From NCBI GenBank assembly GCA_040753155.1, contig JBFMEU010000003.1, positions 5,045-69,044 on the forward strand: DNA of 64,000 nt. The letters run 5' to 3'. A model generated the notes under the pieces. The model was not told where the DNA came from. It searched no databases and saw only the letters and a program-made list of their open reading frames with translations. Positions 5,591 to 62,563 of this stretch are shown here, piece after piece; within the stretch, counting starts at the first letter, position 1, and each line of letters starts with the position of its first letter. Source of the DNA: Bacillota bacterium. Lineage in GTDB: Bacteria; Bacillota; Desulfotomaculia; Desulfotomaculales; JBFMEU01. A program made the position numbers and the translations under genes.

Positions 5591-5763
5591 TATCTTCGCA
5601 CAGCCTGTAAGACCCCGCCCTCTTAGGTCGGGGTCTTACAGGCTGCAAACTCGAAATAAGTGCGACTAAGGTTTAGCGGTCAGGGGACACACCTCCTTCG
5701 GAGGAATGTCCCCAACGTATGGGTTAAAACCCCACCTGAACCAAGTCTTCTTTATCTTCGCAC
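5591..5763 (+). repeat. Family B structured repeat, copy B1 (with a 37-nt hairpin insert and a restart of the 5' end)
   Basis: Shares its core with 12203-12332 and 15464-15692. It has an extra perfect hairpin AGCCTGTAAGACCCCG/CGGGGTCTTACAGGCT. After the terminal TTTAT the first 8 nt (CTTCGCAC) repeat. Confidence 0.85.
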
Positions 5764-10390: not shown

Positions 10391-10715
10391 ATCCTTCCAT
10401 ACTTTACCTGATTGCTGTTAAAAAGATAAACCTGACGTTTAAAATGAAAAATGCATCCGTGAGTAATGTACAAATTATACTTCTAATTCTATCCGCATTG
10501 AATTAAAGAGTCAAAAAATAACTAAAGAGCCTTAATCCCAGCCATTGAATTAAGATGTTTGATAAAGGCATCAGCTTGCTCTATTAATGCAGGTGGATTT
10601 GTTCCAAAAGGTGGTTTAGAACTCTCCCTGCACGGTGACAGTGGTTAAATGAGGAGCTATAATGATGATAGGGAGTATCAGCGTGGGCATTGGCCAGGTA
10701 TTATATCTACGCCCT

Positions 10716-10742
10716 TTGAACGAGACTTCATTCAGAGGGGGG
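10716..10742 (+). repeat. Family A fragment (5' 27 nt only), copy A3
   Basis: TTGAACGAGACTTCATTCAGAGGGGGG matches the A consensus and then diverges. Confidence 0.7.
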
Positions 10743-12202: not shown

Positions 12203-12332
12203 TTTATCTTCGCACAGCCTGTAAACTCGAAATAAGTGCGACCAAGGTTTAGCGGTCAGGGGACACATCTCCTTCGGAGGAATGTCCCCAACGTATGGGT
12301 TAAAACCCCACCTGAACCTTGGTCTTCTTTAT
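12203..12332 (+). repeat. Family B structured repeat, copy B2 (minimal 130-nt form)
   Basis: Layout is TTTAT-CTTCGCACAGCCTGTAA..GTGCGA..ACCAAGGTT[..GGGGACA-cATCTCC-TTC-GGAGGAa-TGTCCCC..]AACCTTGGT-CTTC-TTTAT, with nested stems visible by eye. Confidence 0.85.
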
Positions 12333-12357
12333 TATAACAGAAATGACTAAATTGAAC

Positions 12358-15463: not shown

Positions 15464-15692
15464 TTTATCTTCGCACAGCCTGTAAGACCCCGCCCTCGCA
15501 TAAGGAAAGGGGACACACCTGCTGAAGCTTGGGTATTTCTCTGGGGACAGGAATGTCCCTAACTAATGGGATTAACAGGCTGTAAACTCGAAATAAGTGC
15601 TACTAAGGTTTAGCGGATAGGGGACACACCTCCTTCGGAGGAATGTCCCCAACGTATGGGTTAAAACCCCACCTGAACCAAGTCTTCTTTAT
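15464..15692 (+). repeat. Family B structured repeat, copy B3 (carries a ~100-nt insert that is itself a degenerate B-core module)
   Basis: Same termini and core as B2. The insert follows CAGCCTGTAA, is closed by AGCCTGT../..ACAGGCT, and contains GGGGACACACCTG...GGAATGTCCC. Confidence 0.85.
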
Positions 15693-15723
15693 CATTGCCA
15701 TTATCTGTAAGCAATAAACCATT

Positions 15724-18185: not shown

Positions 18186-18319
18186 CCCCCGACGCTATAT
18201 TTCGCTATTTTATCTGAAAACTCCTTCAACACAAGCTAAATTATCACCATGTGCTAAGGGGGCAGATTATAATGGACCCATAAAATGAGACACGATTTGA
18301 CAGGGTGAAAGCGACACCT

Positions 18320-18545
18320 ACGTCGAAGTGGTATATAACCTTAAACCGCACAGGTCTGTATCGTAAAGCTAAAGAGCCTACGGAACTGGAGGTTAAGATT
18401 AAGCACCTGATCGACAGAATACACACAAAGCATCCATTTAAAGGAGCCAGGCGCATCAGGGATGACATCAATGCCATGAATTTGGGCTTTAAGGTAAATC
18501 GCAAGCGTATCCAGCGCTATATGAGGGATATGGGCATTCAGGTCT
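18320..18545 (+). pseudogene. IS3-family transposase (OrfB N-terminal) fragment
   Basis: ...EVKIKHLIDRIHTKHPFKGARRIRDDINAMNLGFKVNRKRIQRYMRDMGIQ matches the HTH_21 region of IS3 OrfB. No DDE (rve) domain follows. Confidence 0.7.
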
Positions 18546-18661
18546 TCTGCCCGGGCCCGTTACACGAGGTACCTGTCCCCCTGTCCCTGTCCCCCCCTAG
18601 CTTGTTGTGTTGCGTGTCACAATTGTATATAATAAAGTATATCGACTTTGGAGGTGAAAAA

Positions 18662-18949
18662 ATGAAATTTATAACGATAAGGGATCTAAAATTTAAATCA
18701 CCAGAAGTCTGGCGCCGGTTGGAAGCAGAAAAAGATCTGGTTGTCACGTCCAACGGAAGACCGATTGCCATTTTAACAGGTATAAACGAAAACAACCTGG
18801 AAGAGTCACTGGCGGCTTTACGCCGCAGTCGAGCTGTCTTAGCAGTGAATAAACTCCAGTTGCAGTCGGTAGAAAAGGGTAAGGACAAGTTTTCAATGGA
18901 CGAAATCGAGACGGAAATAGATGAAGTACGCCGGGGCCGTAGTATATGA
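18662..18949 (+). CDS. Phd/YefM-type antitoxin
   Basis: MKFITIRDLKFKSPEVWRRLEAEKDLVVTSNGRPIAILTG. GGAGGTG lies 7 nt upstream of the ATG at 18662. The ORF track fuses it in frame to the IS3 fragment. Confidence 0.8.
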   Translation: MKFITIRDLKFKSPEVWRRLEAEKDLVVTSNGRPIAILTGINENNLEESLAALRRSRAVLAVNKLQLQSVEKGKDKFSMDEIETEIDEVRRGRSI

Positions 18950-19356
18950 AGATAGTGCTCGATACAAATGTTCTGATTTCGGGTCTCTTAAAGCCTTTTA
19001 GTACTTCCGGCTTGATCGTTAGGCAGGTTGCTGAAGGAACGATCAAGATAGTATTTGATTCTCGTATTCTGGCGGAGTATCGGGAAGTATTGAGAAGGGA
19101 AAAATTTGATTTTGACACTGAATTAGTCGATATACTGTTAAACCAGATCGAAACGGAAGGGCTATTAGTTTCAGGAAAACCAATTAAAAATAAGCTTCCC
19201 GACCCAAATGACGGCCCTTTTTTGGAAGTAGCACTTGCTATGGAAAGAATCATTATTGTTACTGGAAATAAAAAACACTTTCCTGAAGTTTGTGGCAAGA
19301 TTATCGTTATGGACCCAACGCAGTTTATTGATTATCTGTCCGAACATTGTGACTAA
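18946..19356 (+). CDS. PIN-domain toxin (VapC-like)
   Basis: MKIVLDTNVLISGLL...PDPNDGPFLEVA...IVTGNKKHF. Its ATGA overlaps the antitoxin stop. Confidence 0.85.
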   Translation: MKIVLDTNVLISGLLKPFSTSGLIVRQVAEGTIKIVFDSRILAEYREVLRREKFDFDTELVDILLNQIETEGLLVSGKPIKNKLPDPNDGPFLEVALAMERIIIVTGNKKHFPEVCGKIIVMDPTQFIDYLSEHCD

Positions 19357-19401
19357 CCCAAACTATGTGATATTCGTACTGGAAAGACCGGGCCGCGCAT
19401 C

Positions 19402-19700
19402 TTGAGGCTGAGAATGCAGACTTGGTGGCCTGAAGCAAACCGGCATTGTCCACAATGTGGTTTACCGTATGATCCATTTCCAGGCGACGAGACCTCGGAA
19501 GAAATCGACTGGCAAGTAAAAGCGGAACGGGTAGTACATAGACGCAAACGCTATCACAAAACCTGCCGGTGTCTTGGAGTTCAGACTATCATTACTGCTC
19601 CCCCGCCTCCCAAAGTTATTGCCAAAGGACTATTTACTGCCGGTTGCATTGCCCGTCTATTAATAGAGAAGTACGTACTGGGCTTGTCATGGATCCTTCC
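19402..19700 (+). pseudogene. IS66-family transposase fragment (zinc-ribbon / N-terminal region only)
   Basis: CPQCGLPY..EEIDWQVKAERVVHRRKRYHKTCRC..TIITAPPPPKVIAKGLFTAGCIARLLIEKYV matches the IS66 Tnp N-region. The catalytic domain is absent. Confidence 0.7.
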
Positions 19701-19750
19701 CGCAGCGCCGACGTACCCAAGAGGTTCTTCGGTTTAACAGGGCCCGGCGT

Positions 19751-19778
19751 ATTCAACTCCTGACTCCTGAGTAGTTAC
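19751..19778 (+). repeat. Family C element, right-terminus fragment (C1)
   Basis: ATTCAACTCCTGACTCCTGAGTAGTTAC matches the right TIR of C2, C4 and C5. It abuts the AT-rich cassette. Confidence 0.75.
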
Positions 19779-25050: not shown

Positions 25051-25162
25051 ATTTATCGCCCCTCACAGAGCATATATGATATACTATTTGCCAATTGCAG
25101 TTTAATAATATATATTATATGCCCGTTCAAAATTCCCTCCTTAGCCAAAAAATAATTTTTTA

Positions 25163-25368: not shown

Positions 25369-25405
25369 ATTTTTTATTTTAATTGATATATCTCTATGTC
25401 TGGCT

Positions 25406-28377: not shown

Positions 28378-28406
28378 CTCTTGAACCTCCTTATTTGGTT
28401 ATAGTA

Positions 28407-28708
28407 TATATTCAGTGAAACCGGTGTTAAGGCACGGCATTATCATCGCTCACTCCAGTGCTCCGCGCCGACAGCACCTCGGCTTGTTTCGGACCGGACT
28501 AGCGACGCTGCAAAGGCGGCGATTGATTTATCTTCGGAAGGTGCCTGCTCTCCTCAAAGCACCTTGTTCTCAAACCCGTCGCCTTAGCAGTCCGCTGGTT
28601 TCGCGCCGCAGTCCGGTTACCCTCACTGCGCCGGGTGCTGTTACCGGCGCTCCGCAAGTCGTTCGCTAACGATAATGCCGTGCCTCCACCTGGTTTGCTG
28701 AATACTTA
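28407..28708 (+). mobile_element. Family D ~300-bp TIR element, copy D1 (inside the glyQS leader)
   Basis: TIRs are TTCAGTGAAACCGGTGTTAAGGCACGGCATTATC / GATAATGCCGTGCCTCCACCTGGTTTGCTGAA, flanked by TA...TA. About 90 percent identical to D2 and D3 by eye. Confidence 0.85.
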
Positions 28709-28736
28709 CTGGTTATTTACCCTGCGCGGCCCAAAC

Positions 28737-31274: not shown

Positions 31275-31406
31275 TTGAACGAGACTTCATTCAGAGTGGG
31301 ATTCAACCCCCTCTGAATGTTAGCCGAGTCCATACTGGACTTAACCGCCCTTTGAAACCCGCCGCCTACAGAGGCGGGGTCTTAGGGTGGATTAGTTCAG
31401 TGGTAA
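31275..31406 (+). repeat. Family A structured repeat, copy A4
   Basis: 132 nt with 4-5 differences from A2. It sits directly against the truncated C3 element. Confidence 0.9.
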
Positions 31407-31470
31407 ATCTTCAAATGTTTTCGCTGGTTTTTTCATTCTGACTCCTGACCCCTGACTCCTGAGTAGTTGC
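31407..31470 (+). repeat. Family C element, right-hand portion (C3), truncated at its junction with A4
   Basis: ATCTTCAAATGTTTTCGCTGGTTTTTTCATTCTGACTCCTGACCCCTGACTCCTGAGTAGTTGC aligns with the right part of C4. Confidence 0.8.
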
Positions 31471-32949: not shown

Positions 32950-33082
32950 TTGAACGAGACTTCATTCAGAGGGGGATTCAACCCCCTCTGAATGTTAGCC
33001 GAGTCCATACTGGACTTAACCGCCCTTTGAAACCCGCCGCCTACAGAGGCGGGGGTCTTAGGGCGGATTAGTTCAGTGATAA
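32950..33082 (+). repeat. Family A structured repeat, copy A5 (in the mgtE 5' UTR region)
   Basis: 133 nt, essentially identical to A2. It ends 30 nt upstream of the mgtE ATG. Confidence 0.9.
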
Positions 33083-33263
33083 ATGGCGCCGCCGGACCGC
33101 CCCTGTGAGTTATACAATTATACGCGCGACTACTTGGGCCCGCGTCCACAACACCACCTCCATTCGACAATACGGTGATATTTACAATCACCCTAACAAA
33201 TTTACCAATAAACCACCCTTTGTGTCAAGTTGTCAAGGAAACGGGCACATCAGGACCCGGTGT

Positions 33264-34798: not shown

Positions 34799-34833
34799 AT
34801 CCCCCTTGCTAGTGCCCCCAAAGCCGCTGTATA

Positions 34834-35130
34834 TATTCAGTGAAACCGGTGTTAAGGCACGGCGTTATCACCGCTCACTCCAGTGCTCCGCGCCGGCAGC
34901 GCCCCGGCTTGTTTCGGACCGGACTAGCGGCGCTGCAAAGGCGGCGATAGATTTGTAATGGAAGGCGCCTGCTCTCATCAAAGCACCTTGTTCTCAAACC
35001 CGTCGCCTTAGTAGTCCGCTGGTTTCGCGCCGCAGTCCGGTTACCCTCACTGCGCCGGGTGCTGTTACCGGCGCTCCGCAAGTCGTTCGCTAACGATAAC
35101 GCCGTGCCTCCACCTGGTTTACTGAATACT
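34834..35130 (+). mobile_element. Family D TIR element, copy D2 (overlaps the 3' end of dgkA)
   Basis: Same TIRs as D1 with TA flanks. The last codons of dgkA and its TAA stop lie in the element end. Confidence 0.85.
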
Positions 35131-35502
35131 TACAAGTCGCTGCAGGTGCGGGCCAAAGATCAGCGCCCCGGCCACCACAGCATGCAGAGCGGCCAGCAGT
35201 ACGGCCCCGGCAGCTATATCCTTGGCCCGCCCGGCCAGGGGGTTTGGTCCCGGAGAAACCAGGTCCACCACTGTTTCCACGGCGGTATTCAGCGCCTCGG
35301 CCACCAGGACCAGAAATATGGCCAGGAGTAAAAAAAGCCACTCCTCCCTGCTCAGTTCCAGCAAGCCGGCCAGCGCCAGCACAGCAGCCGTTGCCAGCAG
35401 GTGAATTTTCATGTTGCGCTGGGTAGTCACCGTCCTGGCCAGGCCGGATCCCGCCCGGTAAAAAGCCTTCCAAAAGTTTCCCCGCCACTCCACGCCCGGC
35501 AT
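35119..35502 (-). CDS. dgkA: diacylglycerol/undecaprenol kinase
   Basis: 127 aa, three TM helices, motif EALNTAVE. In the conserved ybeY-dgkA-cdd order. Confidence 0.9.
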   Translation of the reverse strand: MPGVEWRGNFWKAFYRAGSGLARTVTTQRNMKIHLLATAAVLALAGLLELSREEWLFLLLAIFLVLVAEALNTAVETVVDLVSPGPNPLAGRAKDIAAGAVLLAALHAVVAGALIFGPHLQRLVSIQ

Positions 35503-46137: not shown

Positions 46138-46198
46138 CCCCCGCTAAAAAGGCGCGCTAAAACCGGTTCTCCATAGGCGCGCCTGCAACTATCTTTTT

Positions 46199-46377
46199 GT
46201 TACTATTCAGGTATTCAGAATGGACCGTATAGCTCATACTTCGGAAACGCCATAGATAAACGATAAATCGCAAGTACGAACAGGTGCGCCTTCTGCCATA
46301 CCAGTAATCTTCAAACGCTTTCGCTGGTTTTCTCATTCTGACTCCTGACTTCTGACTCCTGACTCCTGAGTAGTTAC
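46199..46377 (+). mobile_element. Family C non-autonomous element C4 (retains the N-terminal part of the four-helix-bundle gene), TSD ATCTTTTT
   Basis: An 8-bp direct repeat sits at 46191-46198 and 46378-46385. On the minus strand the interior reads ATGAGAAAACCAGCGAAAGCGTTTGAAGA(-1 nt)..LLVWQKAHLFVLAIYRLSMAFPKYELYG. Confidence 0.9.
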
Positions 46378-46390
46378 ATCTTTTTTATAA

Positions 46391-48518: not shown

Positions 48519-48548
48519 GGTCGCACCACCCCTTTAGCCTGTTCAAAA

Positions 48549-48659: not shown

Positions 48660-48804
48660 GTTCAAAACACCATTAGGAGGGCAGCCTCCGCATCTGGTGC
48701 GGCACGGCGCCCTCCTGCCGTGTTCTGGATTAATCGGTACTCAACTGTCTTGCCTGACCTCTATTTATTTTATTAAGGTTTGGCTATTCTGTCACCTATT
48801 TTTT

Positions 48805-49102
48805 ATTATTCAGTGGAACCAGTGTTAAGGCACAGCGTTATCACCGCTCACTCCAGTGCTCCGCGCCGACAACACCACGGCTTGTTTCGGACCGGACTAG
48901 CGGCGCTGCAAAGGCGGTGATAGATTTATACTGGAAGGCGCCTGCTCTCCTCAAAACACCTTGTTCTCAAACCCGTCGCCTTACTAGTCCGCTGGTTTCG
49001 CGCCGCAGTCCGGTTACCCTCACTGCGCCGGGTGCTGTTACCGGCGCTCCGCAAGTCGTTCGCTAACGATAACGCCGTGCCTCCACCTGGTTTACTGAAT
49101 GT
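48805..49102 (+). mobile_element. Family D TIR element, copy D3 (5 nt downstream of the dnaK stop)
   Basis: Aligns end to end with D1 and D2. Flanks are TA / TG. Confidence 0.85.
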
Positions 49103-49107
49103 TTACC

Positions 49108-56148: not shown

Positions 56149-56191
56149 ATTCTCAAAAAGGCCTCCTTATTGGCGCAACAACTCATACCTT

Positions 56192-56390
56192 GTAACTACT
56201 CAGGTATTCAGAATTCAGGAGTCAGGAGTCAGAATACCCCGAAACTATGCTTCCAGCAATTTACTAACCTCTTGCAAGAGAAGTTTTGTTTCGTAAGTAT
56301 CACCATATCCAAGATCCTTCGTAAGTATCAAGTAATATCGGCATTCTTCAACAGAACCTTGTGCAATGTTTAAAAAACGCGAGTAGTTAC
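56192..56390 (+). mobile_element. Family C non-autonomous element C6 (retains the C-terminal ~45 codons of the four-helix-bundle gene), TSD CATACCTT
   Basis: An 8-bp direct repeat sits at 56184-56191 and 56391-56398. Termini are GTAACTACTCAGG / CGAGTAGTTAC. On the minus strand the interior reads RFLNIAQGSVEECRYYLILTKDLGYGDTYETKLLLQEVSKLLEA*. Confidence 0.9.
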
Positions 56391-56437
56391 CATACCTTTG
56401 CATTATAACACTTTGGGCAGGCCTCCGAAAAGGTATA

Positions 56438-56481
56438 TATTCAGTGAAACCGGTGTTAAGGCACGGCGTTATCACCGCTCA
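56438..56481 (+). repeat. Family D left-end fragment (D4)
   Basis: TATTCAGTGAAACCGGTGTTAAGGCACGGCGTTATCACCGCTCA, after which homology ends. Confidence 0.8.
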
Positions 56482-58515: not shown

Positions 58516-58571
58516 CTGAATTACGCTGGTTTTCTCATTCTGACTCCTGACTTCTGACTCCTGACTCCTGA
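58516..58571 (+). repeat. Family C right-end remnant (C7) fused to the 3' end of holA
   Basis: CTGAATTACGCTGGTTTTCTCATTCTGACTCCTGACTTCTGACTCCTGACTCCTGAG. The terminal GTAGTTAC is missing. Confidence 0.8.
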
Positions 58572-62550: not shown

Positions 62551-62563
62551 CCTGAATAGTAAC
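62551..62563 (-). repeat. solo 13-nt terminus of a Family C element (inverted orientation)
   Basis: CCTGAATAGTAAC is the exact reverse complement of the left TIR tip GTTACTATTCAGG. Confidence 0.5.

Follow-up and report, generated by a model that had tools for sequence, protein, structure and literature searches.

Family C, a transposase-less cassette with putative IS66-type ends, carries a four-helix-bundle protein gene in a Bacillota genome

MIC231, which has the ends of IS231, is an example of a mobile insertion cassette (MIC). MICs, MITEs (miniature inverted-repeat transposable elements), the IS66 family of insertion sequences (ISs), the four-helix-bundle (4HB) protein family PF05635/TIGR02436 (S23p) and the intervening sequences (IVSs) of 23S rRNA are all known already. 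Few unexplained small genes of bacteria are as abundant as those of PF05635/TIGR02436, which also define the IVSs bearing an open reading frame (ORF) by which 23S rRNA is split in Coxiella and Leptospira. In Coxiella burnetii the IVS measures 444 nt, its terminal inverted repeats pair into a 28-bp stem, its GC content is below that of the genome, it is excised by RNase III, and its S23p ATG comes directly after three to four tandem heptamers (GACAGAT, GACAGAA) (PMC4990558). The origin of IVSs has been called unclear since 1990 and remains so, transposition being one hypothesis (PMC4990558). Here we describe family C, a group of repeats found in 64,000 nucleotides of a Bacillota genome (assembly GCA_040753155.1, contig JBFMEU010000003.1, positions 5,045 to 69,044 of the forward strand); this whole stretch is called the window below. 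Family C copies have terminal inverted repeats (TIRs) and 8-bp target-site duplications (TSDs), encode no transposase and contain the remains of a 4HB gene. We propose, with a probability of about 60%, that family C is a non-autonomous IS66-type cassette (a MIC) with its MITE derivatives, moved in trans by the IS66-family transposase TnpC.

Family C copies in the window

Eight family C copies or remnants are present in the 64-kb window.

C1, 19749-19778, minus strand: lone 5'-type end, GTAACTACTCAGGAGTCAGGAGTTGAATAC, joined to mid-gene sequence of a decayed IS66 tnpC.
C2, 25163-25368, minus strand: complete copy, 206 bp, GC 39%; TSD ATTTTTTA at 25155-25162 and 25369-25376; spacer between ccpN and glyS.
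C3, 31409-31470, minus strand: 5' TIR GCAACTACTCAGG, heptamers and ORF codons 1-10 (MKKPAKTFED); truncated by insertion of a D2 repeat (see below).
C4, 46199-46377, minus strand: complete copy, 179 bp, GC 44%; TSD ATCTTTTT at 46191-46198 and 46378-46385; spacer between rsmE and prmA.
C5, 48549-48659, minus strand: complete copy, MITE of 111 bp, GC 41%; TSD GTTCAAAA at 48541-48548 and 48660-48667; spacer between dnaJ and dnaK.
C6, 56192-56390, minus strand: complete copy, 199 bp, GC 39%; TSD CATACCTT at 56184-56191 and 56391-56398; spacer between lepA and spoIIP.
C7, 58524-58571, minus strand: heptamer array and ATGAGAAAACCAGCG, terminal GTAACTA absent; at the 3' end of holA.
C8, 62551-62563, no strand assigned: solo 13-nt TIR (minus-strand sequence GTTACTATTCAGG); 5 nt past the stop codon of a plus-strand gene.

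Each of the four complete copies is bounded by GTWACTAYTCAGG in inverted orientation, and a perfect 8-bp TSD was found in all four by direct reading and by script. The original prediction, a note made from the sequence of the window, had reported these copies and their perfect 8-bp repeats, and its coordinates were confirmed; the truncated copies that it had placed at 19751-19778, 31407-31470, 58516-58571 and 62551-62563 were likewise present. When up to two mismatches were allowed, GTWACTAYTCAGG had 18 matches in the window compared with 2.45 expected, and none of 100 shuffles reached 18. The ends of family C read GTAACTA(C/T)TCAGG or GTTACTATTCAGG, and chance would give about 0.008 exact matches to the 13-mer of C8.

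Every complete copy occupies a spacer between genes of a conserved housekeeping cluster, C5 being 30 bp upstream of the dnaJ start, and all four are markedly AT-rich by contrast with their 500-bp flanks (53-64% GC). The orientation of the gene remnant is that of the flanking genes in four cases out of four; the remnants C1, C3 and C7 are on the minus strand too, and the solo end C8 adjoins a plus-strand gene. The host is a spore-forming Bacillota, as judged from class B RNase P RNA, spoIIP and ccpN. The window has no rRNA gene. Two Logan contigs of the same strain (L085, L115), which carry the dnaJ and rsmE genes of the window, stop about 40-100 bp from these genes, where C4 and C5 begin; because these contigs end at the elements, family C has enough copies in that genome to interrupt assembly. 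A motif common to the surroundings of C7 and C8, TTCAGGTGGC-TTAG, was rejected as not above chance (35 of 100 shuffles equalled its count).

In the sense of the gene, which is the minus strand of the window, the order is GTAACTACTCAGG, four to six heptamers AGTCAGG/AGTCAGA, ATG AGA AAA CCA GCG AAA followed by the rest of the ORF, complementary heptamers, and a terminus closing with CCTGAATAGTAAC. The heptamers after the gene-start end run into the ATG and their complements precede the opposite end. The ATG was read in the copies directly after the AGGAG-bearing heptamers, as had been predicted, and the last AGGAG heptamer is 5 nt ahead of it.

The internal deletion differs in each complete copy. 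After the 5' TIR, the heptamers and ATGAGAAAACCA, C2 skips to GSVEEC.YYLILTKDLGYGD in the C-terminal third of the ORF and closes with the 3' heptamers and TIR. C4 retains the 5' TIR, four heptamers, the ATG and about 38 N-terminal codons with one frameshift, joined directly to a 3' heptamer and TIR. C5 is reduced to the TIR, five heptamers, ATGAGAAAACCAGCGAAAACA (eight codons only), and the 3' heptamers and TIR. The C6 deletion begins within the TIR, where GTAACTACTC is directly followed by the ORF portion RFLNIAQGSVEECRYYLILTKDLGYGDTYETKLLLQEVSKLLEA-stop, so that this copy keeps the C-terminal third of the ORF together with intact 3' heptamers and TIR. The interiors had been described as different deletion derivatives of one PF05635 gene, with no transposase as cargo, and both statements held: the translations reproduced the reported peptides, the fragments matched PF05635 (N-terminal piece 26.7 bits, E 7e-6; C-terminal piece 33.6 bits, E 5e-8; just under the gathering score because they are truncated), and no transposase-like ORF was found inside any family C copy of the window.

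The full-length cassette, its cargo and its distribution

An intact cassette of about 437 bp was found at locus L007. In a protein search with its ORF of 121 amino acids, at least 7995 of 8000 candidates passed, and the best 120 were 79-100% identical to it, many of them on contigs of 500-800 bp, as expected of collapsed repeats. At least eight different flanks contained one and the same cassette of about 465 bp, with an intact ORF that encodes the protein P0184. The L096 cassette has the perfect TSD AACCATTA, and four more perfect 8-mers (TATTAATA, TATGCCTT, ATTCCATC and CTTAAATG) were obtained for the intact cassette by pairing flanks across contigs; metagenome contigs that run through the repeat are chimeric, so that left and right flanks were matched from different contigs. 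Because identical copies occupy at least eight flanks with five perfect 8-bp TSDs, the intact, transposase-less cassette has transposed recently. The full-length copy whose search had been proposed was thus found in other loci, with about 465 bp, a 4HB ORF of 121 amino acids and no transposase of its own.

The master cassette, of about 440-465 bp, is made of a 13-nt TIR GTAACT(A/G)(C/T)TCAGG, four to six tandem heptamers (A-N-TCAG-R), a promoter-less 4HB gene of 121 codons, complementary heptamers and the inverted terminus. The entire interior is this single ORF, the final codons of which are encoded by the 3' heptamers.

The protein of L007 scored well above the cutoffs of both family models (PF05635, 117.4 bits compared with 33.8, E 4e-34; TIGR02436, 112.3 bits compared with 24, E 1e-32). 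The cassette ORF also matched the PDB entry 2GSC (XCC0516; 7e-19), a record with five chains. XCC0516 has been described as a homopentamer (PMC4990558). Purifying selection on the ORF is strong, with pN 0.10 vs pS 0.72 between L007 and L096, and dN/dS is about 0.15 for two Nostocales copies. The ORF matched PF22296 weakly (6e-4) and scored 26.1 bits vs a cutoff of 80 with the Avd model NF033474, which places it outside Avd; no reverse transcriptase and no template or variable repeats were seen adjoining any copy examined, the neighbours being housekeeping genes.

The ends were searched in one genome per species with a pattern for the gene-distal end type only (GGTATTCAG), and the family C loci are therefore biased to that end. 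The TIR was present in at least 81 loci, from Nitrospirota, Desulfobacterota, Victivallales, Kiritimatiellota, Verrucomicrobiota, Fibrobacterota, Chloroflexota, Actinomycetota and several Bacillota, and the 13-nt ends are nearly invariant across phyla. Among the loci listed, most are short MITE-like elements of 63-400 bp, and 22 (22 elements) have a partner end together with a TSD identical at 7 or more positions out of 8, nine of these TSDs being perfect; the consensus of the partner end is again GTAACTACTCAGG. Remnants of the 4HB ORF form the interior of elements in Desulfovibrio, Dethiobacter, Victivallales and Nitrospira, and the Nitrospira copies have different heptamers (GCTGAAG). Two elements, L012 from the isolate Luedemannella flava and L029, have interiors without heptamers or 4HB sequence, yet their 8-bp TSDs are perfect; because such TIR-only MITEs have perfect TSDs, the 13-nt end is the mobility determinant.

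Two cyanobacterial plasmids, plasmid C of Trichormus variabilis (L106) and pNPUN02 of Nostoc punctiforme (L107), carry 4HB genes within conjugation-gene operons, with the same TCAGGAG/TCAGAAT heptamers around them. The 13-nt terminal repeat has decayed beyond recognition and the ORF is still intact; these look like old, immobilised cassettes. At another locus (L045), inverted family C ends at 1399 and 3717, 2.3 kb apart, surround adk and secY without a matching TSD, and may represent either two independent remnants or a composite structure. C6 (window 56195-56379) was 87.6% identical over 186 nt to positions 728-913 of L072, which belongs to a metagenome-assembled genome (MAG) labelled Desulfovibrio; this likeness suggests either a recent inter-phylum transfer or a mis-binned contig. 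Viral contigs were considered as a vector and rejected: they gave one TIR match, inside a coding region and attributable to chance, and no TnpC relatives, and phages are not an evident vector.

In the RNA of the full-length L096 cassette, both ends (about 45 nt each) are predicted to pair as one long stem around the ORF, with a predicted minimum free energy of -158 kcal/mol vs -134 for shuffles (z -3.95), and the GACAGAA unit of the Coxiella IVS is also found ahead of its ATG. Compared with Coxiella by description, not by sequence, the cassette has the size (about 0.4-0.7 kb), the stem and the heptamers before an S23p ORF that characterize IVSs. Insertion in a 23S rRNA helix (9, 25 or 45) was not seen, all copies lying between protein-coding genes, and no 23S rRNA was detected in the fetched loci by blastn with E. 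coli rrlH. A link to 23S IVSs may be inferred from the shared architecture as described in the literature: the RNase III-excised IVSs would be the same kind of cassette, inserted in rRNA helices, and RNase III may process the cassette RNA as well.

IS66-type ends and the mode of mobilization

The original prediction had suggested that 8-bp TSDs and ends starting with GTAA point to the IS66 family, and had proposed to compare the TIRs with those of intact IS66 copies. Intact IS66-family relatives encode TnpC (L086 vs NCBIfam transpos_IS66, 2e-81), usually followed by a DruA-like ORF (PF14236, 8e-49). Such elements, with or without the DruA-like ORF, have ends GTAAGTATTCGG / GTAACTATTCGGTG (GTAAGTATTCGG or GTAACTATTCGG) and 8-bp TSDs. 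The following gave the details of the left and right inverted repeats (IRL and IRR).

L095: ends GTAAATATTCGGTAAAC and GTAAATATTCGGTGAAC; TSD not duplicated.
L086 and L094: IRR GTAAGTATTCGGT(A/G)AAC.
L111: 4.1 kb, multi-copy; IRL GTAAGTATTCGGTAAACCCG, IRR GTAACTATTCGGTGATCCC; TSD AGATTAAG, perfect.
L113: TnpC only; end GTAAGTAATCGGTGATCCCG; GACTACA-type TSD GAACTACA, perfect.

The IS66 IRR GTAACTATTCGGTG and the family C end GTAACTATTCAGGT share 11 of 13 positions, the first 10 among them; elements of the canonical tnpA-tnpB-tnpC organization start with GTAAGCG. The guess was therefore upheld by intact elements with the ends GTAAGTATTCGG / GTAACTATTCGGTG and perfect 8-bp TSDs, mobilization in trans being the inferred part. 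As for family C itself, it has GTAA-start TIRs and 8-bp TSDs and does not encode the DDE transposase TnpC (PF03050 / NF033517); because no TnpC is encoded, it is at most a non-autonomous IS66 relative, not IS66 proper. We conclude, as far as terminal sequences can tell, that the family C ends are of the IS66 type, and the enzyme moving them is most likely an IS66-family TnpC acting in trans.

A second repeat family of the window, D1, bears on this comparison.

D1, 34829-35133, 28404-28709 and 48802-49106, partial copy at 56433-56481: MITE family of 305 bp, with ends GTATATATTCAGTGAAACC and GTAAGTATTCAGTAAACC and TSDs of 7/8 to 8/8.

The right end of D1 is homologous to the IS66-DruA IRR past the terminal 12 nt, and D1 shares with family C the A at position 11. 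The two D1 ends differ from each other at positions 4-5, in the region where family C differs from the IS. D1 lends support to past activity of IS66-type ends in this genome.

A remnant of an IS66-family transposase gene is also present.

tnpC remnant, 19357-19741, plus strand: decayed IS66-family gene of the DruA-associated subgroup, with two internal deletions.

It matches zf-IS66, is 37-40% identical to annotated IS66 transposases and has 90-95% nucleotide identity to the metagenome locus L087, and it shows that its type of IS66 once lived in this genome. The claim that an IS66 fragment adjoins C1 was correct in that the tnpC is real (90% nucleotide identity), but its bearing on structure was not retained, the two being joined mid-gene. 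C1 was likewise rejected as a natural IS66 end: tnpC homology breaks off mid-gene (L087 position 752), at the fusion to the family C end. This adjacency is a juxtaposition, or a nested insertion plus deletion, and is not structural evidence.

In the mechanism that we favour, an IS66-family DDE transposase TnpC, whose own elements end with GTAA(G/C)TATTCGG, would cut the cassette and insert it in trans, and its staggered cuts would produce the 8-bp target duplication. Insertions fall in AT-rich intergenic spacers. The window copies are dead derivatives (MITEs), each with its own internal deletion and with both ends kept, and expression, if any, would occur by read-through transcription, as suggested by their co-orientation with the host operon in the window.

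Several observations weigh against mobilization by TnpC in trans. The searches turned up no autonomous IS66 element that ends exactly as family C does, and family C differs from the IS66 IRR by A at position 11, by G at position 13 and by the heptamer array. In the 81 family C loci listed (about 520 kb), neither an IS66 tnpC (tblastn with the window fragment and with full TnpC) nor an IS66-DruA-type end was detected. No empty site was recovered, the exact-protein look-ups for dnaJ and rsmE having given only contigs that end at the elements, and the phylum-level distribution rests largely on MAGs. Finally, the tight association of the TIR with a 4HB gene holds across Bacillota, Desulfobacterota, the Planctomycetes-Verrucomicrobia-Chlamydiae (PVC) group and Nitrospirota, even where the heptamers have changed; because of this phylum-wide linkage and of the strong purifying selection, a passive passenger explains the cargo poorly.

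Other places were searched for an autonomous partner. The metagenome loci L086-L093, which encode relatives of the tnpC fragment, contained no family C-type end with up to two mismatches; these loci did reveal the end type GTAAGTATTCGG. Close homologues of the window tnpC fragment were decayed fragments only, without TIRs. Among long ORFs by solo TIRs no partner was retained: L021 encodes a glycogen-branching-enzyme-like host protein, L027 and L042 contain AAA-ATPase-like host genes, and the rve-type transposases of L017 belong to another IS.

Another transposase family, perhaps one not yet described, could serve the ends instead, their resemblance to those of IS66 being due to convergence or distant common ancestry; we regard this as unlikely. 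The failure to recover an IS66 element with the exact terminus fits this proposal, the near-invariant 13-nt end could mean a dedicated, conserved enzyme, and several other IS families make 8-bp TSDs. Yet the first 10 nt are identical to those of a verified IS66 IRR and the TSD has the same length; D1, in the same genome, bridges both end types, its subterminal sequence being homologous to IS66-DruA ends; and high conservation is also a property of the IS66-DruA ends themselves, from Bacillota-like to actinobacterial members.

It is also conceivable that the 4HB protein, instead of being a passenger, acts as a functional partner of the cassette that carries it. Its pentamer would bind both terminal arrays, of about five heptamers, as DNA or as an RNA stem, and promote or regulate the capture of an IS66-type transposase. 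Family C would then define widespread minimal protein-assisted hitch-hiker transposons, of which ORF-bearing 23S IVSs and perhaps the ancestry of the Avd of diversity-generating retroelements (DGRs) would be products. We consider this quite unlikely; if it is true that the 4HB protein acts on its own heptamer arrays, it would represent a new kind of transposon accessory function.

A stronger version makes the 4HB pentamer part of the mobility machinery: it would attach to the array of about five heptamers present at each end and recruit or replace a nuclease or transposase, family C being a minimal semi-autonomous element. The linkage of TIR, heptamers and 4HB gene is kept in at least four phyla, and the heptamer sequence changes in step at the two ends (GCTGAAG/CTTCAGC in Nitrospirota, for instance, vs TCAGGAG/CTCCTGA in Bacillota and the PVC group); the ORF is under strong purifying selection and makes up the whole interior of the master cassette; and the homologue XCC0516 has five chains in PDB and is a homopentamer according to PMC4990558, where Ralph and McClelland are cited as having suggested that the ORF encodes a mobility component. 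We nevertheless find this very unlikely. A helical bundle of 121 amino acids has no known catalytic motif for DNA cleavage, and exact 8-bp TSDs with short GTAA-start TIRs are the signature of a DDE transposase. TIR-only MITEs without heptamers or a 4HB gene (L012, L029) have perfect TSDs, as do the ORF-dead copies of the window, so that the protein is dispensable in cis; conversely, the cyanobacterial plasmid copies keep heptamers and ORF and have lost the TIR, which implies that the protein is retained without mobility.

That family C is not a transposon at all, and is a structured-RNA or repeat cassette spread by homologous or site-specific recombination with coincidental 8-mers, would agree with the strong predicted RNA stem and with intergenic, operon co-oriented insertions such as those of elements resembling repetitive extragenic palindromes, but it is effectively refuted by the TSD data, namely at least 13 independent perfect 8-bp duplications of unrelated sequence (each about 1 in 65,000 at random), to which are added the presence of an identical element in at least eight unrelated flanks and the lack of a conserved attachment sequence.

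In the IS66 subgroup represented by L086, L094, L095 and L108-L112, TnpC is paired with a DruA-like ORF (PF14236/DUF4338, Druantia) inside the inverted repeats. The 4.1-kb IS66-DruA version has three small unannotated ORFs on the opposite strand (154, 38 and 134 amino acids), for which no resemblance to 4HB proteins was noticed by eye in L111 and no Pfam hit is on record. One D1 copy is located in the dnaK-dnaJ spacer along with C5, and the partial D1 copy is 43 bp from C6. Two further repeat families are present in the window.

D2, 737-880, 1897-2030, 31275-31408 and 32950-33083, part at 10713-10741: repeat of about 134-144 bp with the perfect palindrome CATTCAGAGGGGGATTCAACCCCCTCTGAATG.
D3, 5631-5761, 12207-12337 and 15568-15698: direct repeat of about 131 bp, 82-100% identity, with one copy by a tRNA cluster.

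D2 was inserted after C3, since a D2 copy truncates C3. Directly upstream of the IS66 remnant, 18305-19356 contains an IS3-type transposase fragment (HTH_21) and, after it, a Phd/YefM-like antitoxin and a PIN-domain toxin; the 18.3-20.7 kb region, with a low GC content of about 45%, looks like a small graveyard of mobile elements.

Comparison with known systems

The literature searched agrees with the statement of the original prediction that the spread of 4HB/IVS genes is unexplained; in PMC4990558 transposition is only a hypothesis, and no paper tying S23p/four-helix-bundle genes to IS66 or to MITEs was found in that search. Within the same literature, three points appear to be new: that the 4HB gene family rides in a TIR-bounded cassette with 8-bp TSDs, that the ends of this cassette seem to be IS66-type and are nearly invariant across phyla, and that it may form a concrete bridge, by its architecture, to the ORF-bearing rRNA intervening sequences. 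Family C thereby offers a concrete and testable answer to the spread of the 4HB gene family, and the cassette explains why 4HB genes are found inside operons and why assemblies break there.

The Avd of DGRs belongs to the same four-helix-bundle fold family as the cargo, with a weak sequence match; the cargo differs from Avd by its context, a cassette with TIRs and TSDs. The 23S IVSs with S23p in Coxiella burnetii and Leptospira have the same protein family, a similar length (444 nt vs about 440-465 bp), stem-forming inverted repeats, heptamers before the ATG and a GC content below that of the host; unlike them, the window copies are flanked by protein-coding genes and do not interrupt rRNA.

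IS66 elements, both those with TnpC only and those with TnpC and DruA (L086, L094, L095, L108-L113), share with family C the GTAA start, the first 10 nt of one IRR (GTAACTATTC) and the 8-bp TSD, and a decayed copy and a derived MITE reside beside family C in the genome of the window. Family C differs from them in that it has no tnpC, has A and G instead of G and T at positions 11 and 13, and has a heptamer array in place of the subterminal (A/G)AAC(C/T).

Family C is short, TIR-bounded, flanked by TSDs, devoid of transposase and multi-copy, and thus has the defining features of MITEs and MICs, with which it shares IS-type TIRs, a TSD of fixed length, one passenger gene in the full-length form and many short non-coding derivatives. 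Unlike in MICs, the passenger always belongs to the same gene family across phyla, and heptamer arrays are placed between the TIR and the gene; to our knowledge, family C is also far more widespread than any known MIC.

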